Shown here: piece by piece, positions 36-63,995 of the stretch
Position numbering within the stretch: position 1 is the stretch's first letter
Layout of the letters: each line of letters starts with the position of its first letter
DNA from: Candidatus Obscuribacterales bacterium
GTDB taxonomy: Bacteria > Cyanobacteriota > Vampirovibrionia > Obscuribacterales > Obscuribacteraceae
Direction of reading: 5' to 3'
Length of the DNA stretch: 64,000 nt
Assembly (NCBI GenBank): GCA_965228855.1
Contig: CBDDIJ010000002.1
Coordinates: 416,001-480,000 of the forward strand
Notes under the pieces: generated by a model
Told to the model about the DNA's origin: nothing
Database searches by the model: none
Seen by the model: only the letters and a program-made list of their open reading frames with translations
Program-made: the position numbers and the translations under genes

Positions 36-89
36 TTGTCTATCACTCGTTGACGGATTTTCGAAAATTCGTCAACGAGCGATAGACAA
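36..89. repeat. 54-bp palindromic element, copy 1
   Basis: TTGTCTATC A CTCGTTGACG GA TTTTCGAAAA TT CGTCAACGAG C GATAGACAA is a near-perfect dyad; companion TATAGTAG at 168-175. Confidence 0.9.
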
Positions 90-194
90 AACTATTCAAG
101 CGAAACTGACGGCGAAGCGAAACATGCACACAATCAGCCTTACCGACTCAAAGCAACCACGAAGGCATATAGTAGAGTCTTGGGGGAGAAGCAA

Positions 195-302
195 AGGGCA
201 TAGCGCAACGCACTCCGAAAAGTACGCTGGCTACGCCCTCTGCAACCCCTCGCCGAAGGGCATAGCGCAGGACTCTCGTTACAAGAGCCCTGGCTACACC
301 CT
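195..302. repeat. Two tandem related stem-loops downstream of the operon
   Basis: AGGGCATAGCGCA...CTGGCTAC(G/A)CCCT at 195-239 and 257-302, with different loops. Confidence 0.7.
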
Positions 303-399
303 CCGGGTCAGTTGGAGTTTTAACCTGCTGGTTTCGACGCGCCCCCGGCAGGGTTTGGCGTCGTCCTCGCAGGTACTCAGGCGGGTCCCGATATTGCTA

Positions 400-1551
400 T
401 CAGGAATCCGCGCCTTCGCCTCCCTCATCTTCGTCGTCGATCTCGAGGACAACGTCCGTCTTGACTCGACGAGGATCTTCCCCATCGCTGAAGTTGTCGA
501 CCTTGCGCGGCTCGAGCGAAATCTCGTGGCCGTTGGGCAGGCAGCCCGGCTCGGTCTCCGTGTACGGAACGGCATCGACCACGAACGAGCGTCGACCGTC
601 GTCGCCCCGGATGACCGGAACCGACACGCCGAACAGTTCGTTGTGGCAGAGCACGCCCGTGAAGAAGCCGGTGGCGCGGCGGTCGTAGTCCCGCAGGTGG
701 CCCATGCGCGCCGGATCCCAGAGGTAGCCGACTTCATGGTACTCGTGGAACTTCAACTGCAGACCAGGCAGCGTGTGGTCCGGCGTGGTGTGCCAGCCCG
801 ACGCGACCTTGCCGTCGAAGGAGCGAACGATGTTGAGCTGGCGCTGCTCGTGTTCGACACCCGCAGCGTCTGCACCATTCCGGCGACGGAAGTCACCGAT
901 CATGAACAGCGTGCGCTTGTTGACCAGAACAGCCGAGCCGTAACGCAGCACGTGAATGTTGGGATTCTTGTGCAGGTTGAACAGCACGTCCAGGCTCTTC
1001 GGGAGCGAAATCGTCGGATCCGACGGATGCTCCTTCGCCTTCGGATGGCCGACGACCCAGGCGTCCCAGACGCGCTTGGTCTGCTGGATCCATTCCATCA
1101 GACGAATTTCGTTCGGCATCGACAGGTGCGTCGCGGAAGGGATGTAGATCACCTTGCCGCCGGACGCTTCCTGGAACTGCTCGATGAACTTGCCGCACAT
1201 CTCGCCCAGCGCGAGGACCTGGTCCTCGAAGCCGCCCGCCGCCATGGCTTCCGCCACTTCGGGAGCGTCCGGGTAGTCGTGCAGGTAGTTCTCTTCGTCT
1301 TCACCGAAGCGCTTGAAGGCGTCCTCGTCGACGATACCACCGAGCAGAAAGACAACCTCCGGTTTCGTGTCCCGGAGGTAGTTGAGCACCTGCTCCACCA
1401 TGGAGCGGTCGTGGTGCGGGAAGTACATGTGAGCGAGAGCGACCACGCGCATCCCATCCTTCAGCTGCATCGGGTAGATGCCAGCCTCGTGGAGAGACGT
1501 CTTCGGATCCTCCTTCACCGTAACCCGCTTGTGATGTGTGCCTCTTGGCAT
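400..1551 (-). CDS. Calcineurin-like metallophosphoesterase-fold protein, predicted catalytically inactive
   Basis: Start MPRGTHH with upstream GGAG; colinear similarity to 2374-3369 but metal ligands replaced (AHMY, GGIVD, PSATH, SFDGK). Confidence 0.75.
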   Translation of the reverse strand: MPRGTHHKRVTVKEDPKTSLHEAGIYPMQLKDGMRVVALAHMYFPHHDRSMVEQVLNYLRDTKPEVVFLLGGIVDEDAFKRFGEDEENYLHDYPDAPEVAEAMAAGGFEDQVLALGEMCGKFIEQFQEASGGKVIYIPSATHLSMPNEIRLMEWIQQTKRVWDAWVVGHPKAKEHPSDPTISLPKSLDVLFNLHKNPNIHVLRYGSAVLVNKRTLFMIGDFRRRNGADAAGVEHEQRQLNIVRSFDGKVASGWHTTPDHTLPGLQLKFHEYHEVGYLWDPARMGHLRDYDRRATGFFTGVLCHNELFGVSVPVIRGDDGRRSFVVDAVPYTETEPGCLPNGHEISLEPRKVDNFSDGEDPRRVKTDVVLEIDDEDEGGEGADS

Positions 1552-1567
1552 AACAATAACTCCTAGG

Positions 1568-2347
1568 TTAGAGGAGCAGCCCGGCCGCGTCGAGCTTCTT
1601 GTAGAAGTCGATAACGGTCGGAGCGAGCTGCTCGCGGTCGTTGAGACGGAGAACGTTGGGCGCCTTGATCCCACGGTTGTAGGATTCGGGCACGAGGATC
1701 GCAGCGTGGGCCATCTGGCCGACGCCAACCGCGGTTTCAGCGGAGTCTTCGACGATCAGAGGGATGTGCTCCTCCGCCATCTCGTACTTCTTCTGACCGG
1801 GGGTGACGAACCGAACGTCGACGTCGGGGTTGAGCCCGAGGCGAGCAATCAAGTCCTTGGTGACGCGCTGCGCGATGCCGGTGCCGTAGCCCTGGGCATG
1901 GTTGTCGATGCGCATCTCGGCCGCACCCGGAACCCAGGTCCAGACCTTGACGTCGATGCCGGCGTCCTTGATGGCCTTGATCGCTTCGACCACGCCGGGG
2001 TACGGCTGCAGGTCGGCGTAACCACCCTGCGCGCGACGCGCGAAGGTGATGAAGGCCTCCAGGAATTCCTTGCCGGACAGAGCGTTGTCCGGGTCCATCT
2101 GCATGTGGTAGAAGGCGGTCTTGCGAGCATCGATGTTGTGACCGAAGTGCAAGTTGCAGAACCCGGCGAAGGCGCCGAGCCAATCGACCAGCGTGTTGTG
2201 CAGGTCGAGGACCACCGCGCGCTCCCAACGGAAGTCGGGATCGCTCGGGGTCAAAACGCTACGCGGAGGCCAGTTCGGCGCCGTCGCTGCGGGAACCGCA
2301 ACGACCTTCGCCCGGCGACCGCTCGTAGATTTCTTCTTGGAAGTCAT
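1568..2347 (-). CDS. HAD-superfamily 5'(3')-nucleotidase-like protein
   Basis: VVLDLHNTLVDW (motif I variant), LQPYPGVVEAI, VWT, KK, IVEDS; AGGAG RBS. Confidence 0.75.
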   Translation of the reverse strand: MTSKKKSTSGRRAKVVAVPAATAPNWPPRSVLTPSDPDFRWERAVVLDLHNTLVDWLGAFAGFCNLHFGHNIDARKTAFYHMQMDPDNALSGKEFLEAFITFARRAQGGYADLQPYPGVVEAIKAIKDAGIDVKVWTWVPGAAEMRIDNHAQGYGTGIAQRVTKDLIARLGLNPDVDVRFVTPGQKKYEMAEEHIPLIVEDSAETAVGVGQMAHAAILVPESYNRGIKAPNVLRLNDREQLAPTVIDFYKKLDAAGLLL

Positions 2348-2373
2348 GTTGATGATCTCCTTTGTAAAATCGC

Positions 2374-3369
2374 CTAGCGGTCCGGCGAACGATAGGTCTT
2401 ACCCGCGAAGGTAAAGCCCATCTTCGGACGGCCGTCGACGGTGACTTGTTTGATGGGAACCGGCTGCAAGTGAACCTTGCCGCCAACGATCTTGCCGACG
2501 CCGATGGCCTCGTGCCAGTTGTTGGTCAGGTTCGAGTACGCCAGGTACGGATGGGTCGGGTCGACCAGGTGACCGAGCTCGATGGCACGGATTTCGCCAT
2601 TGGTCGTCTGACGGACCGTCATGCCGACGCGGTGCGTGTGACCGGTCGAGGTCGAGCGGCCCGACATGTCGGCGTCAGCGCGGGGGCTGGCAGCCGGCTT
2701 GGGGCGCACGATGCGACCGTGGTGGAATTCCATGTCCCCGTTGATGAGGATGGCACCACCGAAGCCGCCGCGCTCCGCCAGGTCGTAGATGAACGTCACC
2801 GGATCACCAGGCTTGTAGCCCATCAGGCCGTGGAACGACATGATCGGCTCGCGCGTGTTGAAGTCCAGGATGTTCGCGACAGCGGGGGCGGGGTCGGACA
2901 GATACCGCAGCATCCGATCTTCGTGGTTGCCCATGATGTAGAACACATGGATGCAGTTCGAGATCTTGATGAGCGAATCGACCAGACGACGGGTCTCATC
3001 CAGCTCAGCCTGCTGGTTGACGGCAACGCGAGGCGGCCGTGCCCAACGGGAGAGAGCGAACACATCGGCGACGTCGCCGATGAAGATGATGATGTGCGGC
3101 TGGTAGTCCTTCAGGAAAGCTTTGATCGCCCAGAGAGCCAGCTTGTCGTGCGCCGGGACGTGGATGTCCGGCAGAACGACGATGCGGGTACCGTCGGGCA
3201 GATCGAGGGGAAGAATGCCGGCGTACGAAAGAAAGCCGAGGCCCTTGTTGCTGTTGCGAGCAGCAATTTCGTTGGCGAGCAGCTGACGAATTTCAGCGGG
3301 CTCCGCGCCAGTAGCCTTGGCCAGCTTGCGAGCCGCATCTTCCAGAGAAGACGCGTGTGTCTTGTGCAT
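2374..3369 (-). CDS. Calcineurin-like metallophosphoesterase (phage-type)
   Basis: Complete motifs DIH, GDVAD, GNHE, HHG, GHTH. Confidence 0.85.
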   Translation of the reverse strand: MHKTHASSLEDAARKLAKATGAEPAEIRQLLANEIAARNSNKGLGFLSYAGILPLDLPDGTRIVVLPDIHVPAHDKLALWAIKAFLKDYQPHIIIFIGDVADVFALSRWARPPRVAVNQQAELDETRRLVDSLIKISNCIHVFYIMGNHEDRMLRYLSDPAPAVANILDFNTREPIMSFHGLMGYKPGDPVTFIYDLAERGGFGGAILINGDMEFHHGRIVRPKPAASPRADADMSGRSTSTGHTHRVGMTVRQTTNGEIRAIELGHLVDPTHPYLAYSNLTNNWHEAIGVGKIVGGKVHLQPVPIKQVTVDGRPKMGFTFAGKTYRSPDR

Positions 3370-9747: not shown

Positions 9748-10076
9748 TATATTTTGCCTACTATATCCGAGAGTGTCTTGCTACTCCCGTCAAATCCGTT
9801 CAGGATAGGCATCTCGGGAATTTTGATGCGATCGCAAACCAGATAAACTGGTGATTTGTCTATCGCTCAATGCCAGTTTTGAGCAGATCCGTCATTCAGG
9901 GATAGACAGAATTCAAAACTTGTCTACTATATCCGAGAGTGTCCCGCCACTCCCGTGAAATCCTTACACGATAGGGTTTTCTGGGATTTTGACAAGATGG
10001 CAAACCAGGTAAACGTGGTTACTTGTCTATCGCTCAATGCCAGTTTTGAGCGAATCCGTCGTTCAGGAATAGACAG
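9748..10076 (+). repeat. Two tandem ~166-bp units, each CTACTATA plus 54-bp palindrome (copies 2 and 3)
   Basis: CTACTATATCCGAGAGTGTC at 9758 and 9924; palindromes at 9856-9909 and 10023-10076. Confidence 0.9.
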
Positions 10077-10306
10077 AATTCACGGTTCGTCCCGTATAAA
10101 GATCGTTCTAAAATAGTCCGTGAGATTCTCGCGGTGGAAGCAAGCGGCCATGGCTTGGCCGCCAGGCTGTCAGCTCACAGGCTAACCGTGCTTGGCTTTG
10201 GACAAGAGCCATCGCTCTTCTAATTCCGGTTTCAGTCTCGGCTTAAATTGTAGTTACTCCAATTTAAGAGGAGAACGTTCATTTTACAGATAACGTAAGA
10301 ACGTCC

Positions 10307-10467
10307 TTGTCTACGCCAGATAGACGATTTTGGCGAATTCCGGCATTCTGGCATAGACATACCTTGCCGTTCCTTCTGTATCGCGGAGTCCACGTTCGCG
10401 CATCGCGCCAACTGGAGCCAACTGCCGAGGCTGGTTCCGCCGGAGACACTATGCCTCTCTATAGTAG
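10307..10467 (-). repeat. 54-bp palindrome copy 4 plus CTACTATA motif (minus strand)
   Basis: TTGTCTACG..GACG..CGGC..CATAGACAT at 10307-10360; TATAGTAG at 10460-10467. Confidence 0.85.
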
Positions 10468-10536: not shown

Positions 10537-10797
10537 TCAGACGTACAGCGACTGGCGACCGAAGAGGCGCTCTTCGCGCATCGCCTGCTTGTCGATGCGA
10601 CCGTCCTCGGTCAGGATGACGCGGGCGGTCGAGACCGGGCGGCGGTTGCGGCGGCGGTTGGAACCGCGACCGATGCCGAGGATGCGTTCGATGCGCTGTT
10701 CGCGCATGACGTCCTTGGCGGTGGCGCCGATGTCGAAGCCGGGGTCGTAGTCGTTGTTGTCGGTGGCGGTGGTGGTGGTGTTGTTCTGCGTGGTCAT
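10537..10797 (-). CDS. Hypothetical small Arg-rich protein
   Basis: MTTQNNTT start with AAGGAG RBS; strong codon bias. Confidence 0.65.
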   Translation of the reverse strand: MTTQNNTTTTATDNNDYDPGFDIGATAKDVMREQRIERILGIGRGSNRRRNRRPVSTARVILTEDGRIDKQAMREERLFGRQSLYV

Positions 10798-11078
10798 AGT
10801 AACTCTCCTTAGTGCCCTCTCGGGCGGTTGTGATTTGGCACCACCTTTGGTGGCGCCGCCTCGGTGGTTGTGTCGACTCGACGGCACCCGCCGCCAGCCG
10901 ACTGTTTTGCCGAATGGAACTCCCACGCGGCGAAATTCGTTGCTAAAAGAGAATCCTGATGACCAGCAACAAACCGGGGCAGACAAGTCTGTCCGCCCCG
11001 GTTGTTAGTCCAGTCACCACAATGCAGTCGCCTGCATCGCGCTCGAAACCTGCCGGAGGCATTGGTCTGTTGAGCGGG

Positions 11079-11552
11079 TCAGACCTCGACGACGAGCACG
11101 ACCGAATCGCGCGGACCGAAGTCCATGCGATTCATGTCGAACGGCTCGATCGTCTCTTCGGGCTCGTACCGGCGGAGCACACGGTCGACGAAATCCAGGC
11201 CCTCGGCTTCCTCGGCGACGATGTCGGCGAGGTTTTCGAGAGCGCCGTTGAGGTCGTCGACCGACAGGTTGCGGAGCGTGTCGCCGAAGCTGTCCGCCTG
11301 AATCATGCCGGCTTCCAGCATGTCAGCCAGGAGAGCGACATTGATGCCGCGGTCGCGCAGCTCGTCCGCGTCGGGGAAGAGGGCGAGCCCGTCCTCGTCC
11401 TCGAACAGCGCCAGGGCGCGGTCGCCGCGGTCGGCGAAGCGGTACTGGTCGATGATCGAGTCGACGCGCAGTTCTTCGTTCGCGAGCATGCCAGCCACCT
11501 GCGAGGTGAGCTGCGAGCCGGAAACGACGGCGATGAGAGTGATGTTCTTCAT
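11079..11552 (-). CDS. Hypothetical acidic protein
   Basis: MKNITLIAVV start with AAAGGA RBS; strong codon bias. Confidence 0.7.
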   Translation of the reverse strand: MKNITLIAVVSGSQLTSQVAGMLANEELRVDSIIDQYRFADRGDRALALFEDEDGLALFPDADELRDRGINVALLADMLEAGMIQADSFGDTLRNLSVDDLNGALENLADIVAEEAEGLDFVDRVLRRYEPEETIEPFDMNRMDFGPRDSVVLVVEV

Positions 11553-11640
11553 GGTCAAGTATCCTTTCGGTTTGAGGTTGTGCACCACTAGTGGTGCGGT
11601 GAAACAAAACCAGGTGCGACGTCCACCCGGACATCGCACC
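11553..11640 (-). promoter_or_regulatory. Structured 5'UTR, copy A
   Basis: 30-nt hairpin at 11611-11640 is 27/30 identical to 15753-15782; both followed by a U-rich linker, a second hairpin and the RBS. Confidence 0.65.
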
Positions 11641-11719
11641 CTCTCCGAGCACGCGCACAGAGTCGCGCTCCGAACGAACCAGGGACGGATGCAGAAGCAT
11701 CCGCCCCCGGGAAACAGGC

Positions 11720-11950
11720 TTAGCGCCGCTTGCCGCTATTCCGAATCTCGAAATCCGACTTGCGACGCTTCACCAGCGTTGCCGAACCGTAGTTCAGCTT
11801 CATGCTGCCCTCCTTGCTGGTGCGCTCCAGCTGGACGCCGGTGTGGAACTCCCCACCGATCGCCTCGCTGCAGCCAACGCACACCTTCGTGTCCGGCAGC
11901 GCCTCGAGACGCTTGGCCGGAATGGGCTCATCACAACGAATGCAAAACAT
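11720..11950 (-). CDS. TraR/DksA-type C4 zinc-finger protein
   Basis: CIRCDEPIPAKRLEALPDTKVCVGC; GGAGG RBS. Confidence 0.85.
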   Translation of the reverse strand: MFCIRCDEPIPAKRLEALPDTKVCVGCSEAIGGEFHTGVQLERTSKEGSMKLNYGSATLVKRRKSDFEIRNSGKRR

Positions 11951-12021
11951 GCAGCACCTCCTAGGTTTGACCTATCCCCCATTGGATTCGGTCTGATTGA
12001 CACGCCACCGTATACGGTGGT

Positions 12022-12420
12022 CTACCCGATCAGCTTCTCGACCTTCGCGCGGTTCGCCGCGTGCCGGAGCACGTAGCGCGCGAAGCTCAGGTTGCTGGTC
12101 GTGGTGTACTGGGGCGCCTCCATCACGGAAGCGTACCCGCGAACAGCCCGCTCGAGCTGGCGGAACTGCTGCTTCGTCAGCGTCACCGCGAAGCCGCCGG
12201 CGTAGAGCGCCAGCTGCGTCATGGCTCGGCTGTGCTTGGTCGTGCGGCGCTCGCCCTCCTCGTCGACAGGGTTGTGATAGAGCGCAGCGATCGTGCCGCA
12301 CACCATCTGCCTGTCGAACGTCAGGAAATTCCTGGGCAAGCCCTCACCCATCGGTCCGAAGCCGCGACTCATGGAGAAGTCGACGGCGACGTTGACCTGA
12401 GGACCATTTTTCGTGGCCAT
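12022..12420 (-). CDS. Hypothetical protein
   Basis: MATKNGPQ start with AAGGAG RBS. Confidence 0.65.
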   Translation of the reverse strand: MATKNGPQVNVAVDFSMSRGFGPMGEGLPRNFLTFDRQMVCGTIAALYHNPVDEEGERRTTKHSRAMTQLALYAGGFAVTLTKQQFRQLERAVRGYASVMEAPQYTTTSNLSFARYVLRHAANRAKVEKLIG

Positions 12421-12488
12421 GTTTGGCTCCTTGTTAGAGAGTGTTTTGAACTGAGAGCTAACAACCACTGTCTGATGGGTCCAGCGAA

Positions 12489-12914: not shown

Positions 12915-13029
12915 CCTGTTCTCCTTTCTTATTTTTGAGGCGAAACGCGTGCGCGGTTTCGGCTCGGGTTAAGAAGACGGGGCGGGCGCAACTCGCGCCT
13001 GCCCCATCGCTAGAAACGAACTTGTGACG

Positions 13030-42711: not shown

Positions 42712-42756
42712 ACCGTTTCGCATCGCCACCATTCACGCGACAATCAGCAATAATCA

Positions 42757-50060: not shown

Positions 50061-50079
50061 CTTCACTGGAGACATTCAC

Positions 50080-51045: not shown

Positions 51046-51083
51046 TTCACCACTAACCACAACCTCTCAGAGGAGGGTTTTAC

Positions 51084-52253: not shown

Positions 52254-52361
52254 AGATGTTTCGGAACTGAATTTCTTACAGGCGGAGTCGCGTCTGACTT
52301 CGCCTTCCTCTAGGTCGGGCGCCACCAGTCGTGGTGCCTATTTTCTCAACGGAGTTTTGAT

Positions 52362-53387
<1,026 letters not shown>

Positions 53388-53529
53388 GTCAATCACCCAG
53401 AACCGCAACCTGCACCACATGCGGTGCAGGTTCAAACCGGAGGCGCGAACCAGCCGGTGAGAATCGGCTGTTCGCGCCTTTCGGTTGGGTTTGTTTCTAA
53501 AACCTTCTCTCTGAATGAACGGAGACAAT

Positions 53530-54516
53530 ATGTCGAACATCTTTTCGCGCCTCGGGCTCGGCGCAGACTCAGAGTCCCCGGCTTTGCTCGATGAGGACGT
53601 CGACGCCCGTATCGACGATATCCTCAGGCAATCGGGCGAAGGCTTCGTGGCAATCGGCTTCCGGTCTCGGTCGTTCCGCACCGGTTCTCGACGCACGATC
53701 TTCACGGGACCGTCCGGCGACTTCTACAAAACCGCAGAATACGTCCCCGGCGAGCACGAGCAGCGTCAAATCATGGGGCGTGCCACCGCTCGAACGGGAG
53801 GGCGACAGAAGGTCGTCAAAATTTGCCGCCCGGACGCGCAAACGACGGTCTACATGCTCGCCGACGTCAACCGCACGCTCGACTTCGGTCACAGCCGGGA
53901 GAGCAAGCTGCAACTGATGGCACGCTGCGCCGCCACCGTCTGTCTCTCCTTGCAGGAGACGCAGGATCTGGTGAAGGCGGCTCTCTATGCCAACGAAAGC
54001 GTGGCTTACAGCATGCCGCGCGCCAAGATTCCGAATCTGGCCGTCCGCCACATCATCCGCGAGATCATCGACCCGGTGCACTCGACCGGCAAGCTGGATT
54101 CCGGTCTCGAAGAGGCGCTTCGCATCGTGCCGGCCTCCGGTCAGCGTGAGGTCGTCATCCTGTCCGACTTCCTCAACACGACCGAACAGCAGTACCAGGC
54201 GCTCGCCGACCTCGCCCGCCTCAACAACGTGCGCGCAGTCGTCATCCAGGACATCCGAGAGCGCGAGCTTCCCGATAAGGGCGGCTTCATCCCGCGCCCG
54301 CTCAAAGTGTTCGACATGACGACCGGCAAACAAGTCACCTGGTGGCTCACCGAGTCGAACCGGCGCAAGTACACAGCCGAGTTCGAAGCGCATGAGGAAG
54401 CGCTCAAAGCATTTTTCGAAGAGAACCTCATCCGGTACGAAATCGTCCGGACCGACGATGAGGACTCGGTTCCCAAAGTCATCGGGTTGCTCAGCAGCCC
54501 TCCCCTTCTTAGCTAA
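53530..54516 (+). CDS. DUF58 family (vWA-like) protein
   Basis: GDF..AEYVPG..R.I..ATAR, ILSDFL, D..E; follows moxR. Confidence 0.8.
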   Translation: MSNIFSRLGLGADSESPALLDEDVDARIDDILRQSGEGFVAIGFRSRSFRTGSRRTIFTGPSGDFYKTAEYVPGEHEQRQIMGRATARTGGRQKVVKICRPDAQTTVYMLADVNRTLDFGHSRESKLQLMARCAATVCLSLQETQDLVKAALYANESVAYSMPRAKIPNLAVRHIIREIIDPVHSTGKLDSGLEEALRIVPASGQREVVILSDFLNTTEQQYQALADLARLNNVRAVVIQDIRERELPDKGGFIPRPLKVFDMTTGKQVTWWLTESNRRKYTAEFEAHEEALKAFFEENLIRYEIVRTDDEDSVPKVIGLLSSPPLLS

Positions 54517-54526
54517 GGAGATTCGT

Positions 54527-55642
54527 ATGAAGAACAAAGCTCTTTACCTGGGCGCGCTCCTGAGCTGGCTTCTCATGCCGGTTCTCGCGCAAGCGCAGAT
54601 CACTCCGCCACCACGGGCGACGCCCGCGGAAGTGAAGCGCGGCTGGTTCGAAAACCGACGCATCATGATCGAGGTCCGCACCGACAGCGCCTTCGCCCCC
54701 ACAGGCGAAGGACTGCGCCCCGGAGCGCCCTCGACGTTTCCATTCGGCGAGCACTTCGGCATCCGCATCGGCAACGTCGTTCCGATGCGCGTCAACGTCT
54801 ATGTCCTCAAACCGCAGCAGGGCGAACGCAAGATCGACATCGACTTCAATCCCCTGAAGGCTGGCCGCCTGTCTATCGACCCGAATCCGGATCCGGACTT
54901 CCGCCTCGTGTCGCCCCAACTGCTTCCGAAAGGCGAGACGCCGGTTTCCATGGCAGCCGCCAAAGAAGTGAAACTTCAACTCGGCGACAACGAATACGAC
55001 GCCGAGCTGTATGAAATCCGGCTCTACGTGCAGACTATGCGCCAGCCCCAGCCGATGCGCTTCGCCATCGAGTTCGCCTACGCGGCAAGCGAAGTCAACG
55101 GCGCTCCGGACTGGAAGCGCATCTGGACGCCGGACTTCATCCTCTCGATGTCGAAGACCGCCGACGACGGTTCAGACCTCTCCGCCGGCAACACTAACTA
55201 CGAGGCTCAGCACCCGCCGTTCACCGCCGGGCTGTTCTTCGTAATCCTGGGCACGATCTGGGTGATTACGCCAATCAGCTACATCGCCATTCGGGCGATT
55301 CGACGCAAACTCATGAAGGAGCGGCTACTCGACCCAGAGGAGCTTGCCTGGCTGAAGCTGGAACCAATCTTCGCATCCGCCCGGGTCGAAAACGGTTATC
55401 GCTTCAGTGAGTCGCAGGTTCGCGGTGTGGTGGGCACGGTTTTGCAGTACGTCGGAAAGCCGACACTCACCTCCCGACAGCTCGACTCGCTCGTTTACGA
55501 AGACGACGACGGCGAGTTGCTCATTGCGATTTTGCGACCGCTCCTCGAAGGTGTCATGGAAGGCAAGCTCAAAGAGCCGCTTAGCGCCGAAACCGGCGCG
55601 CGCATCGTCGAACGCATCGGTCAATTGATTCCGCGAGCATAA
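54527..55642 (+). CDS. Secreted/membrane protein (BatD-like position)
   Basis: Signal peptide, beta-rich domain, TM helix, C-terminal helical domain; AAGGAG RBS. Confidence 0.65.
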   Translation: MKNKALYLGALLSWLLMPVLAQAQITPPPRATPAEVKRGWFENRRIMIEVRTDSAFAPTGEGLRPGAPSTFPFGEHFGIRIGNVVPMRVNVYVLKPQQGERKIDIDFNPLKAGRLSIDPNPDPDFRLVSPQLLPKGETPVSMAAAKEVKLQLGDNEYDAELYEIRLYVQTMRQPQPMRFAIEFAYAASEVNGAPDWKRIWTPDFILSMSKTADDGSDLSAGNTNYEAQHPPFTAGLFFVILGTIWVITPISYIAIRAIRRKLMKERLLDPEELAWLKLEPIFASARVENGYRFSESQVRGVVGTVLQYVGKPTLTSRQLDSLVYEDDDGELLIAILRPLLEGVMEGKLKEPLSAETGARIVERIGQLIPRA

Positions 55643-55795
55643 ATGTTTTTCCCAGCAGGCGAATCATGGAAGCGGCGCTTGTTGCGCCGCTTTCCATGCC
55701 TGCTTATTGGATAGATCCTGATCATAGTGAGGAGCAATTGCCGCGGCTTTGCAGCGCGGTCCCTTTGCGTCTCACGATTTCCAAAGGAATTTCTG

Positions 55796-57436
55796 ATGAA
55801 ACCTTCCAAGATTCTCGGTGGTGGTATCACCGGAGCAATCGCGCTCCTCGTGACGCTCGCCGGGTCGAGCTTCGCGCAGACGCCGACGCCGGCCGCGCCG
55901 TCCATGCACGAGCTGCTTCAGGGAATGAAGTTCCCTCTGGCCGTGCCGGTTCCGGAGAAGCCGGATCCACTTCGATTGTATAAAGAGGCGATTGATACGA
56001 TTGCAAAACAACACATCGCGCTGGCCGGCTACGCCGAGCCGGAAGCGACCCAGGTCGAGACCATGGTCAACGGTTGGTTGGGCCGACCGTCCCGGGCTCG
56101 CAAGACTAAGATGGACGCTTTTCTCGAGAAGTGGGGAACGCCGCCTCGCGAGCTGAAGACACTCGACGACGCCGATACGGCTATTCAAGAGGCGCTCAAA
56201 GACCTCGATTTCCGCTTCGACTCCTACCTCGTCCCCAAGGACGTGAAGCTCGAAGACAAGCGAATCGACAACACCAACATCGGTATCGGCGTCATCTTGA
56301 AGCTCGAGGGCATGCAGGAGCTGCTCAAGAGTCTTCCCCAGGATGCCACCGAAGAACAAGTCGACAAGGTGCTCGTCATCTCCGAGAAGAACTTCCTCTC
56401 CGCCAAGCCGGTCCGTAACAGTCCGGCGGAGAAGGGCGGGATGCTCGATGGCGACGTCATCAAAGAAGTCGCCGGCAAAGCCATTCTCGGGATGCAGTAC
56501 ACCGAGGTGATGAAGCTCATTCGGGGCAAGCAGGGCACCAAAGTCGATATCACTGTCGAGCGGGTGGAGAGCGGCAGTAAAATCACCAAGAAGCTCACCA
56601 TCACTCGTGATGAGTACGAGGTTCCGGTAGTGACGTTGAAGCATGTCGGCAACGACGTCTGGCATCTGCATCTGGAAACCTTCGCTGCCCGCAACGCCGC
56701 CAAGGATGTGAAAGAAGCGCTGGACGAGGTCGTGAAGAAAGGCGGCAAAGCCCTGATCTTCGACCTGCGCGACAATGGCGGCGGCTTGGTCGACCAGGCA
56801 ATCGATATCGCCACGTACATGCTGCCGGAAGGCACCATCGTCACGCAGCAGCAAAGGCTGTTCGGCGGTCCCGGTGTGGTCGAGACCCAGAGTCACGTCA
56901 CCAAGCACGTCATGCTCGAGACTCGCCCGCAACCCAACGGGCAGTTGCCGGTAATCAAACCGCGCACGCTGGCAGTGCCAGCTGACATGCCCATCGTCGT
57001 GCTTGTAAACGGACACAGCGCCTCCGCATCGGAACTCGTGTCCGGTGCGCTCAAGTTCAACAAGCGTGCGAAGCTCGTCGGTACGCGCACCTTCGGCAAA
57101 GGCGTCGGTCAGGCGCTTCTAGATCTGCCCTATGGTCGGCGACTGCACGTCACTTCGTTCTACTTCTTGCCTGACGACCAGTTTACCGACTGGGTCGGTA
57201 TCGAGGTAGACGTGGAGTCGAAGCTGGCCGACGATGCGAAGAAGGACACCCAGCTCGAAGACGCCGTCAAGGTCGTCACCGAGATGTACGAAAATGGCGT
57301 GCAGGAGCGAGCCGCCAACGCCAAACGCGAAGAGGAGATTCGCAAGCTCAATCGTGAGCTGTGGCAGAAACGCCTGGAGCGCCAGAAGGAGATGGAGGAA
57401 GCGCTCAAGAAGAAAGAAGCGAAGCCCTCGAAGTAA
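55796..57436 (+). CDS. S41 carboxy-terminal processing protease with PDZ domain
   Basis: GIGV, SPAEKGG, DLRDNGGG, SASASE, TFGKG. Confidence 0.9.
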   Translation: MKPSKILGGGITGAIALLVTLAGSSFAQTPTPAAPSMHELLQGMKFPLAVPVPEKPDPLRLYKEAIDTIAKQHIALAGYAEPEATQVETMVNGWLGRPSRARKTKMDAFLEKWGTPPRELKTLDDADTAIQEALKDLDFRFDSYLVPKDVKLEDKRIDNTNIGIGVILKLEGMQELLKSLPQDATEEQVDKVLVISEKNFLSAKPVRNSPAEKGGMLDGDVIKEVAGKAILGMQYTEVMKLIRGKQGTKVDITVERVESGSKITKKLTITRDEYEVPVVTLKHVGNDVWHLHLETFAARNAAKDVKEALDEVVKKGGKALIFDLRDNGGGLVDQAIDIATYMLPEGTIVTQQQRLFGGPGVVETQSHVTKHVMLETRPQPNGQLPVIKPRTLAVPADMPIVVLVNGHSASASELVSGALKFNKRAKLVGTRTFGKGVGQALLDLPYGRRLHVTSFYFLPDDQFTDWVGIEVDVESKLADDAKKDTQLEDAVKVVTEMYENGVQERAANAKREEEIRKLNRELWQKRLERQKEMEEALKKKEAKPSK

Positions 57437-57521
57437 CTCCGGGACTTCGCGCGCGTTGATTTCTCACTGACACGGGGAGCCGCATTCTATGCGGTTCCCC
57501 CTTCTCATAAAGGAAACACCT

Positions 57522-59057
57522 ATGTCGAAACGACACACGTTTGCGCGCGCTACCAGGCGCGCCCGGGCTTACAACGCCACGCTGGCGTTGCGCGCCATTG
57601 GGCTCGGTCTCGTCGTGACGCCGATTATCGTATTGGCACTCTTCTGGGCCGGACGACCTTCACCTGTCGCACCGCCTCCACGTGTCGGGGTGGCACTCGT
57701 CTCGGAATTCGCCCCCAGCGCCACTGCCCAGGATCTGTCGAAGGTCTTCAAAGACGTCGCGCTGTCTACCGAGACGCGCTTCATCGAGCGCGACAAGGTC
57801 GTGCCCACGCTCGCGAGAATGCGCAAGGAGTACAAGGACGGTGCTCTGCAAAGCAAGCAGCAACTCGACCAGGCGCTCGTGGACTACCTCTCCACTCTCA
57901 ACGACCGCTACGCCACGGTCATGTCGACCCAGGAATACATCGACCTTATGGTCGGTATGTCCGGGCAGCAGGTCGGCGTGGAGCTCAACTTCACCCAGGA
58001 TTCGGCGACCGGCAACTGGGTTGTTCAGCAGATGGCGAAGGACGGACCTGCGGCCCAAGCCGGAATTCAGGTGGGCGACCTGCTGGTCTCCATCGAGGGC
58101 TACCATGTCGAGGAACTGAAGAAGATCGGAAACGTCGGGGAGCTCTCGCAGTTTCTGCTCTCGCAAGCGGGCGTTCTGGGCAGCAAAGCCAAGATTACGC
58201 TGCGGCGGGGAGGCGATGTTTTCGACTTCGAAGTCGAGCGCACTATCATCAAAACCCTCCCTGCCATCGCGGTCCGCGACATGGACGGCGGCTTCGACGA
58301 GGAGGCAGCGATGATGGGCTTTCCGAGCGGAATCTCATCGGACGGACAGTACATCAAGGTCAGCCACATGGATGGTGACAACTTCTTGAGAGAACTGGAA
58401 GGTATTGTCAACAAGCTGGTCGAAGACGGCGTTCCCGGTGTTGTACTCGACCTGGCCGATGTGACAGGTGGCAACGGAGACGTCGCCATCCAGGCAGCGG
58501 CGCTGTTTATCGACTCCGGCGTGATCGCTCACTGCATCAAAAACGTTGAGGGTGATGCCATCGAGATGAGCACCTACAGCGTTCGCGACCACAAAGTGTA
58601 CCGGAGCGTGCGCGGTCCATTCCGCAAAGCACCTGACGGCAAGCTCGTTGCGGACGAAAGCGTCAAGGAGTCAGAAGAGGCTTTGCCCTGGAAAGCCGGC
58701 GTGTTCAAGGGCGAAGTGGTGGTGGGAGTCAACGGTGGCACTCAGGGAGCAGCGGAGCTTCTCGCCGGAGCCATTCAGAAGAACAAACACACCATGGTCG
58801 TCGGGACTGACGTGACCTTCGGCAAGGGCATGACGGTGACTTACTTTCCGGTTTCGCCGGATCACGTCGTGCGATTCTCGACCGCGGTCTACCTGCAGCC
58901 TGACGGAGCGTCAATCGAAAAGCGAGGCATTATGCCGAATGTCGGAGTCCAGGAATTCGAGTACAATCGGGCACTGATGCAGGTGCTCGAGCACCGTCTG
59001 CGAATCGTGCCCTACCCGACGGGACCGGTCAAGCCTGGAACCGGCAGCGACAAGTAG
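57522..59057 (+). CDS. S41/PDZ paralogue lacking the catalytic serine
   Basis: PDZ (GPAAQAGI..GD), DLADVTGG, TQGAAE instead of SASASE, TFGKG, GIMPN. Confidence 0.8.
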   Translation: MSKRHTFARATRRARAYNATLALRAIGLGLVVTPIIVLALFWAGRPSPVAPPPRVGVALVSEFAPSATAQDLSKVFKDVALSTETRFIERDKVVPTLARMRKEYKDGALQSKQQLDQALVDYLSTLNDRYATVMSTQEYIDLMVGMSGQQVGVELNFTQDSATGNWVVQQMAKDGPAAQAGIQVGDLLVSIEGYHVEELKKIGNVGELSQFLLSQAGVLGSKAKITLRRGGDVFDFEVERTIIKTLPAIAVRDMDGGFDEEAAMMGFPSGISSDGQYIKVSHMDGDNFLRELEGIVNKLVEDGVPGVVLDLADVTGGNGDVAIQAAALFIDSGVIAHCIKNVEGDAIEMSTYSVRDHKVYRSVRGPFRKAPDGKLVADESVKESEEALPWKAGVFKGEVVVGVNGGTQGAAELLAGAIQKNKHTMVVGTDVTFGKGMTVTYFPVSPDHVVRFSTAVYLQPDGASIEKRGIMPNVGVQEFEYNRALMQVLEHRLRIVPYPTGPVKPGTGSDK

Positions 59058-59129: not shown

Positions 59130-59296
59130 CTACTATATGATCTCATGGCACCTCGCTACTATATGATCCCATGGAATCAAAATGCTCAGAGCCGTGATGG
59201 TGATTGGGTTTTTAGAAACGACATGCGCCAGACACAAAGCGTTTGTCTACGACTCATTGACGCTTTTCCGAAAATCCGTCGCTCTCTCGTAGACAG
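59130..59296 (+). repeat. Duplicated CTACTATATGATC plus 54-bp palindrome copy 10
   Basis: Motifs at 59130 and 59156; palindrome TTGTCTACG..GACG..CGTC..CGTAGACAG at 59243-59296. Confidence 0.85.
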
Positions 59297-59733: not shown

Positions 59734-60726
59734 ATGGATAAACCGCAAGCTCAACCCGGTCTCGGCTGGGTCGAACGTTTCATCGGCGGAAGCAAGCAAG
59801 CCGAAGCCGCGTTCATCGCGCAAGCCATGAACGATATTCATGTGGTCCAGCGCCGCAACCAGAAAACCGGTCAGGCCGAACGTGCTGCCCGCGCTTTCCA
59901 CGCCAAGATCCAGGCCGGCATCACCAACGCCGAGTTCGTGATCTTGCCGGATGCGCCTCGCGAGCTCGTCTCGAAATTCATCGTGCCCGGTCGCCGTTAT
60001 GCAGCCAGTCTGCGCTTCTCCAACGCGTCGGGCGTCATTCAGCCTGACACGAAGGGCGACCTGCGCGGTCTGGCTGTCGAAGTGAAAACCGAAGATGGCG
60101 TTCAACACTTCCTCGGCACCAACGGCGCCGGCTCGCACGCTCGAGACGCGCGTCAATTCATCGAGTTCGCCAAGGCGGCCTCCGGCTCGAAACTCCTGAT
60201 GTTTCCTCGTCTTCTGTGGAACGTCGGACCGTTCGAGATGGTGCGCATGCTGCGCACAGTGATCGGTCAGGTCAAACGCCCCATCGCCAGCCTGGCTACC
60301 GAGAGCTATTTCAGTCGTTCCGCATTCGCGTTCGGCGCCTACGCTCTCAAGTTCCAGTTCACTCCGCGCGAGAGCGTGGACGTGAGCACGGCCAAGTCGG
60401 ACTCGTTCCTGCGAGACGACCTGGTGGAGCGCCTTCGCCGCGGTCGCATCGTCTTCGACTTCCAGGTCCAGTACTTCTCCAACGAGAAGGAAACCCCGGT
60501 CGAGGACGGAAGCGCGATCTGGCCGACCCGGCTCATCACCATCGCCCAGCTGATCATCCCTCAGCAAGACCTGCTTTCCGAAGACGCGCTCGCGGCTCAG
60601 AAGCTGGTCGAGGAGATCGAATTCAGCCCGTGGAAGACCCCGGGCTTCATCAGGCCTCTGGGCAGCCTGAACCGCGCACGCCGCTCCGTGTATCGGGCGA
60701 GCGTCCAACTCAGGAAGGGACTCTGA
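59734..60726 (+). CDS. Short catalase-related haemoprotein
   Basis: RAFHAK (distal His), RFSN, DLRGLAV, GTN, RPLGSLNRARRSVY (proximal Tyr); only 330 aa. Confidence 0.85.
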   Translation: MDKPQAQPGLGWVERFIGGSKQAEAAFIAQAMNDIHVVQRRNQKTGQAERAARAFHAKIQAGITNAEFVILPDAPRELVSKFIVPGRRYAASLRFSNASGVIQPDTKGDLRGLAVEVKTEDGVQHFLGTNGAGSHARDARQFIEFAKAASGSKLLMFPRLLWNVGPFEMVRMLRTVIGQVKRPIASLATESYFSRSAFAFGAYALKFQFTPRESVDVSTAKSDSFLRDDLVERLRRGRIVFDFQVQYFSNEKETPVEDGSAIWPTRLITIAQLIIPQQDLLSEDALAAQKLVEEIEFSPWKTPGFIRPLGSLNRARRSVYRASVQLRKGL

Positions 60727-60852
60727 GTCTGTAAAGACAGGGTTCAGCAACCGCACTCCGGATGCGGCAGGCCATGCCTTGCCGCGTTCGGGATGCCGCG
60801 CAGTCTGTTTAAACCTCGATCCCAAACATCCTACTACGACGAAGGATTTCTC

Positions 60853-63800
60853 ATGAGCGACAATCCGATTCAAAACGGTGCAGAAGGCACCCACGGCGGC
60901 GACTCCCGACGATGCCCCATGCATCAGGGCGCCGCACCGGACAACACCACGGGCGGTGCCGCAGGCACGCCCACCGATCAACAGAACGAGAGCCGCTGTC
61001 CGTTCACGCGCGCGAAGAACAAGCTCGGAAGCCTGGTCTGGCGTCCCGACTCCAAGCGCGTCGGCATCGGTCTGTTCGAGTACATCTTCCTCAACGCGTT
61101 CTATTACCTGATGGAAACGGCGAACCGGGCCCTCTCCCGCAACCCGTACCGCAAGGTCTCCTGGGACAAGTGGCCGGCATCGCTCGCACAGCTCTACCTG
61201 CTGGCGAAGATCTGGTACAACCGCACCAACGCGATCACCGACCCCTACGACTACGCGGCCAACGACACCGTGGAACTCGGCAAGCCGCCGGCTTCGGTGA
61301 AGGATAACATCGCGACCGACGGCACCTGGGTCTCGGACGACGAGAACCCGCAGATGGGCGCTGCCAACACCCGCTTCGGGTCGAACATTCCGCCCAAGAA
61401 AGTGCGCCCGGACGTCGAGAACATGACGCCGTCCGCTCGCGAAGCCGGCAAGCTGCGCTGGCGCCGCATCGACCCCGAGACAGGCAAGGAAATCACCGTC
61501 TACGCCATGATTCTGAACGACATGGCCGGCGGCTGGATTCAGTTCCAGTTCCACGGCTTCGGCGGCAACACCATGCGCGACCCGGTCAGCGTCTGCCCGC
61601 ACATCATGAAGCGCGAGCCGCACGACAACTGGCCGGGTGGTGAAGCGAAGATCGATCGCACTTCGGTCGATCACACTCGCATCACCGACAACGGGCGTCC
61701 GACGCCGATCAACGAACGTGTGCAAGCGTGGATTCAGGGCGAGATCTACGGGACGTCCGAAGAAGAGCTGAAGCCTCTGCGCGCCTTCAAGGGCGGGCTG
61801 ATGCTTATCGAGGACGACGGTCGCCTGCCTGCGGACCCGAAGCGTCCGGGCGTCGACCTGACGGGCTTCAACAACAACTTCAACCCGCTGCTCAGCTTCC
61901 TGCACTGGCTGTTCGTCAGCGAGCACAACGCCATCGCCGCTTACTACGCCTCCTTCCATCCGGATTGGGACGACGAGCGCCTCTTCCAGATGGCTCGCCG
62001 CACCAACATCGCGCAGATTGCTCGCATCCACACGATCCAGTGGACCGAGGACCTGCTCCAGCACCCGGCTCTGCAGATCGGCATGCACACCGACTGGTAC
62101 GGTCTGATCGGACCGCGCAAGAAGATGTGGCTGATGCGCATGTGCCACCGCTATCCCTGGGTGGAACGCCTGACTCGCCGCCTGCGAAGCAGCGACCTTC
62201 TCTTCGGAATGCCCGGCTCCAAGTGGGATCACCACGAGGGTCCGTACCAGGTTCCGAAGCACTTCCGCATGGTCTATCGTCTCCACGAGATGATTCTCGG
62301 CGAGACGGAGATTTGCGAACCGGGCACGGATCGGCTGATCGAGCGCGTCAAGCTGCTCGACTTCGTGATGCACAACACCCGGGCGCAGGTGCAGAAGTTC
62401 GGATATGAAACGCTCGCCTGGTCGTTCGTCCGCAAGTCCTGCGGCGCGCTCGTTCCGCACAACGTCGCTCGCGCGATGACGCAGTTCGAGAACCAGCAGG
62501 ACGGAACGCTCACCGACATTTGCGAGCGCGACATCTTCCGCGAGCGCACCGACGGCACCGGCACCTACAACGAATTCCGGCAGTCGGTCGGAGAGCCGCC
62601 CGTCACGAGCTTCCTGGAACTGACCGGCGGCGACGCCGAAATGGCCAGGGAGCTGTCGATCAAGTACGACGGCGACGTGGACGCAGTCGACTCGGGCATC
62701 GGCATCCTGGTCGAGCCGAAGCCCGCGGGCTTCGCGCTGGGCTTCTGCCAGTTCTATCAGTTCGTGCTCAACGCTCCTCGTCGAGTGAAGAGCAACCGTC
62801 ACCTGACCGAGCTGTTCACCTACGAGTACTACAAGGAGGGCATGAACTGGGTCGAGCACGGTGGTGGCATGCTCGGTGCCATGCATCGTCACCTGCCCAA
62901 GATGCGTCCGCTCATGGAAGGCGTCACCCGTGCGTTCGCGCCCTGGAAGGATACGGAAACCTTCCCGCATCGCCAGCTCCAGGAGTTGCACACTCACACG
63001 GCCAACGTCTTCAAGTCCGACATGGCCACCCTGGGTCTGGGCATCCTCACCGCGATCGCCGCGGTCCGGACGGGCGCGGTTCCGCTTTCAACCGCGGTAC
63101 TGCTGCTGGTGGCAATCACGCTCATCCCCACAGCGCTCACCGTGAGGCGTATGGCTGCGATGCGCTTCCTTCAGCTCTGCTGGAAGAAGTGCTATACGGA
63201 CAAGCGCCACTTCATGTTCGGCACGCTCGAACGCGCTGAGAACTCGATGAACAGCGCCGCCCGCTTCGGCTGCGCACATGCCGTGGCGGTGACTTACATC
63301 TCGCTGTTCCTGGCCTGGGTGTTCTTCGCCACACACCCACTCACATCCGTCCTGCTGCTTGCCGTCGCCGTCTCCGGACTGCGGGTGCGCAAGTGGTCGA
63401 ACGCATTTGCGCACGACGCGCAGGTGCTCAAGATCGCGCTGCGCAATCGCATGCGCGAAGAGGGTGAAACACCGGCAATCGTCGAAGAGCTGCCGGGCAA
63501 CACGCACAAGCAGAAGCGCTCACGCTTCCTGTCGGTCAGCGGAGCTTCGACATTCGACCTGTCCTCCACGCGCATCTATGCGCAGGATGGCAACGTCGAC
63601 ATGGCGGAATTCGACCTGATGTGCCGCATGTACGCGCCCGGCCGCGACTACTTCACCAGCTACGACTTCGCTCGTATGCGCGAGGGCAACAGCCATCGCG
63701 ACGCCGACGAGGGTCGTGGCAACTGGCTGTCGCGCCTGTTCGGACGCCTGTCCGCCAAGCGCACTGCCGACCAGCTCATGCTCCAATTCGGCGACCGCAT

Positions 63801-63933
63801 CGTCGAGGAGGACAAGAAACTGGTGCCCGCCATCAGCCATGAAACTCTGCTGCGCTTCTATCAGGGCGCCGCTCAGCACGATTGGCATCGCGAGCAAACC
63901 GAGGGCGACATCGACCCGACCTCGGCGCACTAA
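60853..63933 (+). CDS. Alpha-dioxygenase-like haem peroxidase fused to TM helices and a caleosin-like C-terminus
   Basis: WIQFQFH, EHN, ARIHTIQWT, VYRLH, YNEFR, YDGDVDAVD; TM region ~63020-63390; C-terminal caleosin-like segment. Confidence 0.8.
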   Translation: MSDNPIQNGAEGTHGGDSRRCPMHQGAAPDNTTGGAAGTPTDQQNESRCPFTRAKNKLGSLVWRPDSKRVGIGLFEYIFLNAFYYLMETANRALSRNPYRKVSWDKWPASLAQLYLLAKIWYNRTNAITDPYDYAANDTVELGKPPASVKDNIATDGTWVSDDENPQMGAANTRFGSNIPPKKVRPDVENMTPSAREAGKLRWRRIDPETGKEITVYAMILNDMAGGWIQFQFHGFGGNTMRDPVSVCPHIMKREPHDNWPGGEAKIDRTSVDHTRITDNGRPTPINERVQAWIQGEIYGTSEEELKPLRAFKGGLMLIEDDGRLPADPKRPGVDLTGFNNNFNPLLSFLHWLFVSEHNAIAAYYASFHPDWDDERLFQMARRTNIAQIARIHTIQWTEDLLQHPALQIGMHTDWYGLIGPRKKMWLMRMCHRYPWVERLTRRLRSSDLLFGMPGSKWDHHEGPYQVPKHFRMVYRLHEMILGETEICEPGTDRLIERVKLLDFVMHNTRAQVQKFGYETLAWSFVRKSCGALVPHNVARAMTQFENQQDGTLTDICERDIFRERTDGTGTYNEFRQSVGEPPVTSFLELTGGDAEMARELSIKYDGDVDAVDSGIGILVEPKPAGFALGFCQFYQFVLNAPRRVKSNRHLTELFTYEYYKEGMNWVEHGGGMLGAMHRHLPKMRPLMEGVTRAFAPWKDTETFPHRQLQELHTHTANVFKSDMATLGLGILTAIAAVRTGAVPLSTAVLLLVAITLIPTALTVRRMAAMRFLQLCWKKCYTDKRHFMFGTLERAENSMNSAARFGCAHAVAVTYISLFLAWVFFATHPLTSVLLLAVAVSGLRVRKWSNAFAHDAQVLKIALRNRMREEGETPAIVEELPGNTHKQKRSRFLSVSGASTFDLSSTRIYAQDGNVDMAEFDLMCRMYAPGRDYFTSYDFARMREGNSHRDADEGRGNWLSRLFGRLSAKRTADQLMLQFGDRIVEEDKKLVPAISHETLLRFYQGAAQHDWHREQTEGDIDPTSAH

Positions 63934-63937
63934 ACTG

Positions 63938-63995
63938 CGGGGCGGAAGATCCGGATTACATCCGGGTCTTTCGTTCCCCGATCTTTTCTACTATA
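63938..63995 (+). repeat. Terminator-like hairpin followed by CTACTATA (element runs off the window edge)
   Basis: CGGGG..AAGA TCCGGAT/ATCCGGG TCTT..CCCCG, then TTTTCTACTATA with the motif at 63988-63995. Confidence 0.7.

Follow-up and report, generated by a model that had tools for sequence, protein, structure and literature searches.

One-ended transposons of the IS91/ISCR type have one fixed end, which lies 3′ of genes. Among systems with a defined recombination site, CTnDOT has an overlap in which a conserved dinucleotide is joined to a variable coupling sequence of 5 bp, with imperfect inverted repeats and arm sites on either side (PMC2817482). Repetitive extragenic palindromes (REPs) are cut by TnpA-REP at C|T within CTAC, and tandem units are added in the accompanying model (PMC3333891); REPs are also targets of the insertion sequence ISPpu9. 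At the rolling-circle origin of pMV158, the nick site is TACTACG/AC and the bind locus lies 84 bp further downstream (PMC1851628), and the guide layout of the IS110 bridge RNA has been described (PMC11208160). In this study, we analyzed a repeat in a stretch of 64,000 nucleotides from Candidatus Obscuribacterales bacterium (assembly GCA_965228855.1, contig CBDDIJ010000002.1, positions 416,001 to 480,000; G000:C2:416001-480000 in our numbering). We refer to this whole stretch as the window and to the 8.2-Mb genome as G000. The repeat joins a CTACTA site to a palindrome, and it lies mainly behind transcription units of high GC content. Obscuribacterales are a little-studied, non-photosynthetic sister group of cyanobacteria. 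In titles and abstract openings, the literature on Obscuribacterales (repeats, recombinases, codon use and mobile elements) and that on terminator-linked recombinase miniature inverted-repeat transposable elements (MITEs) gave no description of this repeat.

Genes were called with a purpose-built two-class dicodon model, from which the labels 'GC-rich' and 'core' derive. An earlier note on this DNA had reported that 11 accessory transcription units are each followed, on the sense strand, by CTACTA[T/A/G]. We found the motif behind 11/11 units, 52–224 bp past the stop codon, and at none (0/3) of the three core convergent junctions that the note had described as free of it. Its other observations on these units also held. 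The motif stands after a terminator-like hairpin in the units whose sequence was read, a palindrome follows each motif (including an off-window one at 64074), and the units have a stronger bias to G/C-ending codons, with GC at third codon positions (GC3) of 0.64–0.92 against 0.49–0.64 in core genes. The label 'accessory' was too narrow, as fumarase and further genes of central catabolism belong to the class.

The word CTACTATA occurs 16 times in the window compared with 0.66 times per 64 kb on contig C3. Genome-wide it was observed 292 times while 58 were expected under a third-order Markov model, and 233 of the 292 have a 52-bp palindrome no more than 300 bp downstream. With a matrix trained on arms, a site was scored 3′ of 124/189 GC-rich units and 21/204 core units (P = 2e-31); the motif therefore marks unit 3′ ends across the genome, as had been proposed. 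At palindrome clusters, the motif was on the facing side for 124/142 GC-rich and 34/78 core 3′ ends, and for 24/44 GC-rich and 33/62 core 5′ ends. The earlier note had seen the motif and palindrome only at 3′ ends. The enrichment at 3′ ends stood, but the restriction to them did not. The element is mostly two-armed, with motifs flanking and facing the palindrome, so that arms also come to lie beside 5′ ends and core genes. Examples in the window are the arms at 9758/9924 next to where the core gene for ribonucleotide reductase (RNR) has its 5′ end, degenerate ones at 24198/24257 after a core gene, and those at 59130/59156 upstream of unit 59734. In addition, 37 of the 163 palindrome clusters had no GC-rich neighbour gene. 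A search for the motif at unit 5′ ends yielded only weak words such as GCTAGC. A sigma-70 −10 box (TATAGT or TACTAT) was rejected as well: the supposedly key positions are the least conserved, they vary in relatives and there is no −35 box. Site presence was not linked to replication orientation (68/97 lagging versus 56/92 leading units, P = 0.22), and a polar fork barrier was therefore also rejected.

The site is a dyad, YTACTA-N7-TAGTAR. Its profile in 248 arms is CTACTA-TA-N5-(T)MGTAT, in which CTACTA is the strong half and the 7-bp spacer keeps only its first TA, followed by five free bases. Weak phased A/T tracts lie between the dyad and the palindrome, which comprises four G(T/G)C boxes in 52 bp. 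The arm distances fall into helical steps: 241/248 are within 2.5 bp of 75, 86.5, 98 or 109 bp, in bins that were set after viewing the histogram and that span about 38% of the searched range. A full repeat of about 150–250 bp has a site, a helically phased spacer, the palindrome and often a mirrored arm. A hidden Markov model (HMM) built from the window copies (cut-off E<0.05) found 221 palindromes, 218 of them outside called genes. They form 163 clusters, 136 of which are in C2:62 kb-1.12 Mb and the end of C5, a region that spans dnaA and the GC-skew minimum. Covariation between the palindrome halves is slight (17.2 versus 16.2 paired positions in 153 palindromes), and 2/7 window palindromes fold no better than shuffles; this pattern suits proteins that bind the double strand better than it suits a hairpin that must form. 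In 62 two-armed elements, the left spacer resembles the right one no more than shuffles do. The elements showed no target duplication, which led us to reject a MITE with target duplication; a protelomerase junction was rejected because the palindrome centre is variable. In Rfam, nothing matched at the gathering score, and a single hit was at chance level. One palindrome subfamily, TGTCAA...TTGACA, occurs without arms in tandem arrays of 71–76 bp period, sometimes around a low-GC passenger gene (G000 C2:77322, 137257, 322787 and 552206; C3:39.5 kb and 64 kb in the related genome G007).

We tentatively favour, at not quite even chances, the reading that the repeat is an att-like substrate for a candidate tyrosine recombinase, which would move mostly the repeat itself and sometimes re-dock a unit. 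The spacer layout, the imperfect inverted arms and the distant boxes, all like those of CTnDOT, favour a tyrosine-recombinase substrate, and the homology of distant copies from the motif onward suggests a site-specific process. There appear to be two layers at the 3′ ends: an inherited post-terminator dyad and a lineage-only, non-autonomous repeat that is likely att-like. CTACTA and its inverted partner would be the core sites bound by the recombinase, and strand exchange would take place in the 7-bp spacer in a CTnDOT-like manner. The palindrome boxes may act as arm-type or accessory sites, brought back in phase by looping. In most events the repeat alone would be moved or swapped; rarely, a unit between two sites might be excised and re-docked at another site.

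The strict palindrome pattern was present in only G000 and G007 (94.8% overall identity) among 41 genomes, and also at 47 loci in two metagenome assemblies (about 92% identity to G000). Among distant copy pairs (68–87% identical), 16 of the 34 listed align up to 0–8 bp from CTACTA/TAGTAG, and a complete two-armed element is found on each of two contigs, with 83% identity over 243 bp. Orthologous arms were replaced or heavily diverged in 8/72 cases against G007 and 20/48 against the metagenome strain. The homology with G007 breaks ≤5 bp upstream of the motif at 18/68 sites compared with 23/300 controls. Tandem duplications are 19–239 bp long. The motif is a rearrangement hot spot.

Another reading involves a different enzyme. 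A REP- or BIME-like (bacterial interspersed mosaic element) repeat might have been spread by a HUH nuclease of the RAYT or Rep type that nicked C|TAC, amplified the sequence downstream in a rolling-circle-like way and has since been lost. This is rather improbable, although the repeat is intergenic and mostly 3′ of genes, its tandem amplification has a roughly fixed start and a variable end, and IS110 targets it as ISPpu9 targets REPs. Both the cut made by TnpA-REP in CTAC, with its model of tandem addition (PMC3333891), and the pMV158 nick and bind locus (PMC1851628) also suit such an origin. However, neither Pfam nor HMMs derived from relatives detected a Y1 transposase in G000 or G007, and Rep_OBD was found in 0/8 genus genomes, while its control was positive. 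The palindrome profile lacks a GTAG foot and the motif is not surrounded by a hairpin. The duplications carry 5–12 bp from upstream of CTACTA, their ends are not marked by C|T, and the dyad symmetry would be left unexplained. Y1 genes do occur in G002, G014 and G015, and this repeat was not seen among the flanks listed for them.

The earlier note had also inferred that self-contained modules were inserted one-endedly, with IS91/ISCR rolling-circle capture as one model. In the palindrome-free genomes G001, G002, G005 and G006, the window units keep the same order and orientation and a high GC3. Unit 27128-27625 is the exception among the 11; the other ten (10/11) are syntenic in at least one relative. 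The note itself had named synteny without the element as the outcome that would speak against insertion, and recent one-ended insertion of most units is largely contradicted. Unit 400-3369 lies behind dnaJ in 17/19 Obscuribacterales loci, with 49–84% protein identity, and its GC3 is above that of dnaJ in 16/17 dnaJ-linked loci. A 160-kb contig of G002 held 58/77 GC-rich and 36/41 core genes, and GC-rich and core genes are likewise interleaved in 180 kb of G012, a genome of another genus than G000. Viral contigs contained neither the palindrome nor a locus for the unit protein. That the units are recent captures, with CTACTA as the origin end of an IS91/ISCR insertion, is thus very unlikely. 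The 3′ polarity of the site, the gain and loss of genes directly upstream of it between strains, and two relocated units described below would fit such captures. But the units are syntenic across species and genera at that level of protein identity, tricarboxylic acid cycle and beta-oxidation genes are among them, the copied sequence runs away from the unit rather than into it, and GC at four-fold sites is flat along units. No Y1, Rep_OBD or Y2 HUH enzyme was found; the Y2 search gave no match in G000, though its control was also without a match.

Relatives without the palindrome keep the bare dyad after terminators. In the near group, TACTAY stands 3′ of 22/50 GC-rich and 4/44 core ends (P = 1.7e-4), this group including one locus that is probably from a second genus. 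In relatives, the inverted second half emerged although it had not been selected for (T13 85%, T16 73%), and near-perfect dyads lie between convergent units in G002 and G012. In G012, TACTA follows 8/27 GC-rich and 2/22 core ends (P = 0.15). Some relatives have repeats of their own at such junctions. G002 has a 39-bp tandem family together with a four-box palindrome, TGTGCC/GGCACA (L009:1-440 and the end of L010), and G001 has a 30-bp repeat (L012). A further repeat, CGATGA...TTTTCGTCATTT, lies 3′ of a UPF0114 paralogue (L242-L244).

Genes and whole units also vary between genomes. G000 and G007 have different genes immediately upstream of the site. From the G002 contig, 9/35 units of G000 are absent as whole blocks, and 26/35 are in place. 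Of five absent units that were followed up, two have changed place. The single-gene unit C2:414424-415608, just left of the window and flanked by two elements in G000, is not at that position in the metagenome strain or in the stretches of G002 and G012. G002 has it at the place corresponding to 197 kb of G000, with a leader that is homologous from about 27 bp after a TACTA site, and there the unit ends in a dyad. Unit C2:385818-387613 is found in G005 at a site-bearing position that matches 90 kb of G000. One absent unit was not found in five genomes. For the UPF0114 unit 27128-27625, only homologues of 41–58% identity exist elsewhere in G002, G005 and G006, without the site. Contigs of four runs on window positions 24001-43900 showed joints that change arm copy number; among 15 of 24 joints listed, none skipped a unit. 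From the block absences and the two relocations, a dispersed cassette system with its enzyme encoded elsewhere, the other model of the earlier note, may apply to a minority of units. A bolder version would have a catabolic programme of some 430 kb, rich in GC, kept as about 190 self-contained, promoter-carrying operons, each ending in a symmetric recombinase site and still re-docked as a whole by a host-domesticated tyrosine recombinase, while a parasitic att-like minirepeat, in turn parasitised by way of reprogrammed IS110 bridge RNAs, colonised the docks in one lineage; we find this doubtful.

The search for an enzyme gave candidates and no more direct partner. G000 has XerC- and XerD-like genes. 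Two further Xer-like genes lie inside the GC-rich region, at C2:369829 (L033:7829-8713) and C2:923282 (L034:8183-9055). They are 84–93% identical across the genus, keep the second Arg, the His and the Tyr, and are candidates for binding the site. The single-sequence fold of such a protein was unusable (pLDDT 37). A reverse transcriptase gene, C2:944459-945628, ends 17 bp before an element, and a second, C3:2800619, is present in 8/8 genus genomes searched; neither of the two could be linked to the repeat.

Several results weigh against an att-like site served by a tyrosine recombinase. In about 369/399 GC-rich proteins, Pfam revealed no recombinase, transposase or HUH domain. None of the 17 PF00589 matches in G000 is tied to the site, and several arm-binding integrases are encoded far from any palindrome. 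In close homologues of the Xer-like pair, the first catalytic Arg is replaced by Lys (24/24) and a His by Gln (23/24), and the intact relatives of the pair are in plasmid-like islands without sites. The site was not enriched at distant loci, which include one G012 locus (4/21 versus 5/28), and counts of the exact bare dyad pattern in 41 genomes showed no excess over the reversed control. The tandem duplications (72 pairs) begin about 5–12 bp upstream of CTACTA, outside the spacer, and their ends are variable. As for the units, besides the large share that stay in place in G002, one of the five followed-up absences was a plain loss in that genome. Most unit 5′ ends lack a half-site, and their leaders continue into conserved flanks. 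The relocations could also have arisen by homologous recombination between copies of the repeat.

The Xer-like pair would also suit a structural role. The dyad and palindrome might be binding sites for a host protein that organises or supercoils the chromosome (e.g. this pair, domesticated and probably inactive). The sites would stand behind the terminators of a single regulon, strongly transcribed and close to the origin, and rearrangements would follow as side effects when replication or pairing is disturbed by stalling, slippage or homologous recombination between copies. We regard this as unlikely. It would account for the long conservation of the site after terminators, for the helical phasing and phased A/T tracts, which fit protein binding, and for the presence of both Xer-like genes, conserved and with R, H and Y kept, in the GC-rich region; the weak palindrome covariation, the 2/7 window copies that fold like shuffles and the breakpoints just outside the motif agree with it, too. 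However, site presence has no tie to head-on orientation, distant copies often share homology from the motif onward, and outside G000, G007 and one metagenome strain the palindrome is missing. The att-like substrate is still our preferred reading.

The repeat is itself a target. A first IS110 element has three identical 1,256-bp copies (C2:774695-775950, 858556-859811 and 1120765-1122020), and a second, related one has four (near C2:198 kb, 988 kb, C5:861 kb and 1462 kb). All seven copies sit inside the palindrome. Their proteins have the DEDD and Tnp20 domains of IS110 (PF01548 with a score of 98.9 at a cut-off of 29; PF02371 over its cut-off). In their non-coding ends, at IS positions 99–126, guide-like words match each element's own target box, and the two elements address different boxes. 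The IS110 elements are parasites of the repeat, not its shown spreaders. For bridge-RNA retargeting, two IS110 elements with guides to two boxes of one repeat offer a case from nature.

Around oriC (G000 C2:62 kb-1.12 Mb and the end of C5), GC-rich operons amounting to about 430 kb are interleaved with core genes. Contig C4 and C2:1-61.5 kb were treated as contamination and excluded from the analysis. They are likely contamination joined into the assembly and comprise an AT-rich piece of eukaryote-like character, a block resembling a conjugative element and genes of alphaproteobacterial type. The reading of these stretches as a GC-rich donor element was rejected: their gene content looks foreign, and G007 continues only from C2:62.9 kb. 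The Pfam scan used 115 G007 orthologues among its GC-rich proteins and left out 13 unmapped genes and some paralogues. It revealed citrate synthase, an aconitase-malate dehydrogenase fusion, isocitrate dehydrogenase, fumarase, PEPCK and beta-oxidation enzymes, together with many peptidases and hydrolases, PrkA-DUF444-SpoVR, a sigma-70 factor (C2:706806), one HNH and one PD-(D/E)XK nuclease. The fusion, of aconitase with a lactate/malate dehydrogenase domain (1,161 aa), lies beside citrate synthase (L055:16257-19739 of G007, orthologue at G000 C2:949022-952510).

The GC-rich genes have a GC3 of 0.81 compared with 0.56 in 14 motif-picked highly expressed genes; translational optimisation like that of ribosomal genes was rejected on this ground. 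The internal spacers of GC-rich units are also richer in GC (0.564 versus 0.487), and AAGGA stands upstream of 28% of GC-rich and 6% of core genes, a stronger Shine-Dalgarno signal. Four-fold divergence between G000 and G007 is 0.079 in GC-rich genes and 0.127 in core genes. A GC gradient from the site, as conversion tracts would leave, was rejected because of the flat GC at four-fold sites. High GC is a long-kept property of the whole transcription unit and does not itself indicate recent capture. We infer that the GC-rich units form a co-regulated catabolic compartment of old origin.

Table 1. Elements of the repeat and GC-rich transcription units along the window, with site strands in parentheses.
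Feature	Coordinates	Strand	Description
Element 1	37-175		Palindrome 37-88 and arm with site 175(-), 3′ of unit 400-3369; second arm off-window (G000:C2:415947)
Unit	400-3369	-	GC-rich; metallophosphoesterase and two genes without Pfam match
Element 2	9758-10467		Two tandem site-arm-palindrome copies, sites 9758/9924, palindromes 9857/10024, beside 5′ end of core RNR gene
Element 2, further part			Palindrome 10308-10359, then site 10467(-)
Unit	10537-17597	-	GC-rich, 10 genes (DksA/TraR finger, S1, Bax1-I, PD-(D/E)XK); syntenic in G001, G002, G005
Element 3	24198-24502		Degenerate duplicated arm CTACTACT at 24198, 24257 after core gene; palindrome 24343-24394; site 24502(-)
Unit	24671-25315	-	GC-rich; metallophosphoesterase; syntenic in G001, G002, G005, G006
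Unit	27128-27625	+	GC-rich; UPF0114; missing at its place in 4/4 relatives examined
Element 4	27726-27972		Site 27726(+), palindrome 27811-27862, site 27972(-)
Unit	28052-29918	-	Contains fumarase C; syntenic in 4 relatives
Unit	33051-33743	+	No Pfam match; syntenic in 4 relatives, with bare dyad 3′ of its terminator there
Element 5	33808-34201		Three tandem arm starts 33808, 33871, 33976; partial palindrome 33945; palindrome 34051-34102; site 34201(-)
Unit	34426-34977	-	GC-rich; syntenic in 4 relatives
Unit	35997-38060	+	GC-rich; 687-aa membrane protein; post-terminator dyad also in G001, G002, G006
Element 6	38172-38720		Sites 38172, 38233(+); palindromes 38319, 38489; sites 38470, 38640, 38720(-); tandem duplications
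Unit	38773-39654	-	GC-rich; PP2C phosphatase; syntenic in G001, G002
Unit	47577-59057	+	GC-rich; vWA-TPR-vWA-MoxR-DUF58-two S41 peptidases; syntenic in G001, G002
Element 7	59130-59295	+	Sites 59130, 59156 (26-bp duplication), palindrome 59244-59295; one-armed
Unit	59734-63933	+	GC-rich; catalase-like gene and haem peroxidase; syntenic in G002
Element 8	63988-64000	+	Site in window; palindrome off-window at 64074

Some further features were observed in the window and beyond it. The trailer of unit 400-3369 (175-400) has three related hairpins of the GGGCATAGC/GTAGCCAG type before the site, and likewise in G002 and G005. Operons paralogous to the vWA-TPR-MoxR-DUF58 unit occur at C2:484-494 kb, 926-931 kb, 1032-1038 kb and 409-413 kb, some with S41 peptidases and all in the GC-rich class. 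The octamers TGGTGGCA and TGGTATCA and related ones are over-represented 2–4x in G000, e.g. near window position 9520; 83–90% of them are in genes, with little strand bias. We take these octamers to be reminiscent of cyanobacterial HIP1.

Whatever the mechanism, the genome has two interleaved compartments that differ in GC, codon use and ribosome-binding sites and that persist across genera. This persistence bears on the origin of aerobic catabolism in Obscuribacterales, and the old GC-rich units warn that high GC3 need not imply recent transfer. If the att reading is true, the chromosome would carry a network of >150 recombination sites at one gene class, something between integrons and REP repeats. 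It would then also have a route for operon-scale shuffling and possibly a new recombinase specificity.

How the repeat relates to the described systems can now be stated feature by feature. Like the att sites of CTnDOT (IntDOT), it has imperfect inverted core arms, a 7-bp spacer made of a dinucleotide and five variable bases, distant repeated boxes, and ends without spacer homology (shuffle-like in our 62 elements). Unlike CTnDOT, it is a tiny non-coding unit in >200 copies with no integrase adjoining any of them, two cores share one central palindrome, and its placement after terminators is fixed. The IS110 elements that target it have, in a non-coding end with target and donor guide-like words, the same layout as described bridge RNAs (PMC11208160). 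With integrons and CALIN arrays it shares one site at the 3′ end of modules that can change place (PMC9024848). In contrast to integron cassettes, which are mostly promoterless and arrayed in one orientation, the units have their own promoters, terminators and long leaders, are multi-gene, occur in both orientations and are mostly static. Comparison with the attC consensus showed no attC boxes, and the unequal arms prevent end-to-end pairing; nor was IntI found, in a TIGR02249 scan of only the two Xer-like proteins (44–58 bits, cut-off 265). What resembles a pMV158 origin is the nick-like word TACTA and, some 84 bp further on, a binding locus specific to the lineage; here, however, the motif follows a hairpin instead of lying in its loop, the boxes are inverted, not direct, and Rep_OBD is missing from all eight genomes. 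As in IS91/ISCR, one fixed end lies 3′ of genes, but no transposase was found (the Y2 control being blank), copying points away from the genes and the units are ancient. As with REP, BIME and REPIN repeats, there are hundreds of intergenic, lineage-specific palindromes, with tandem arrays and IS110 as a visitor (PMC3333891, PMC6006769). They differ from these in having no GTAG-footed hairpin and no RAYT found, in the phased 75–109 bp arms that end in a dyad, and in their association with one gene class near oriC. On the features tested, the repeat falls outside the REP, integron, IS91 and pMV158-origin families, and it works like a hybrid of an att site and a REP.

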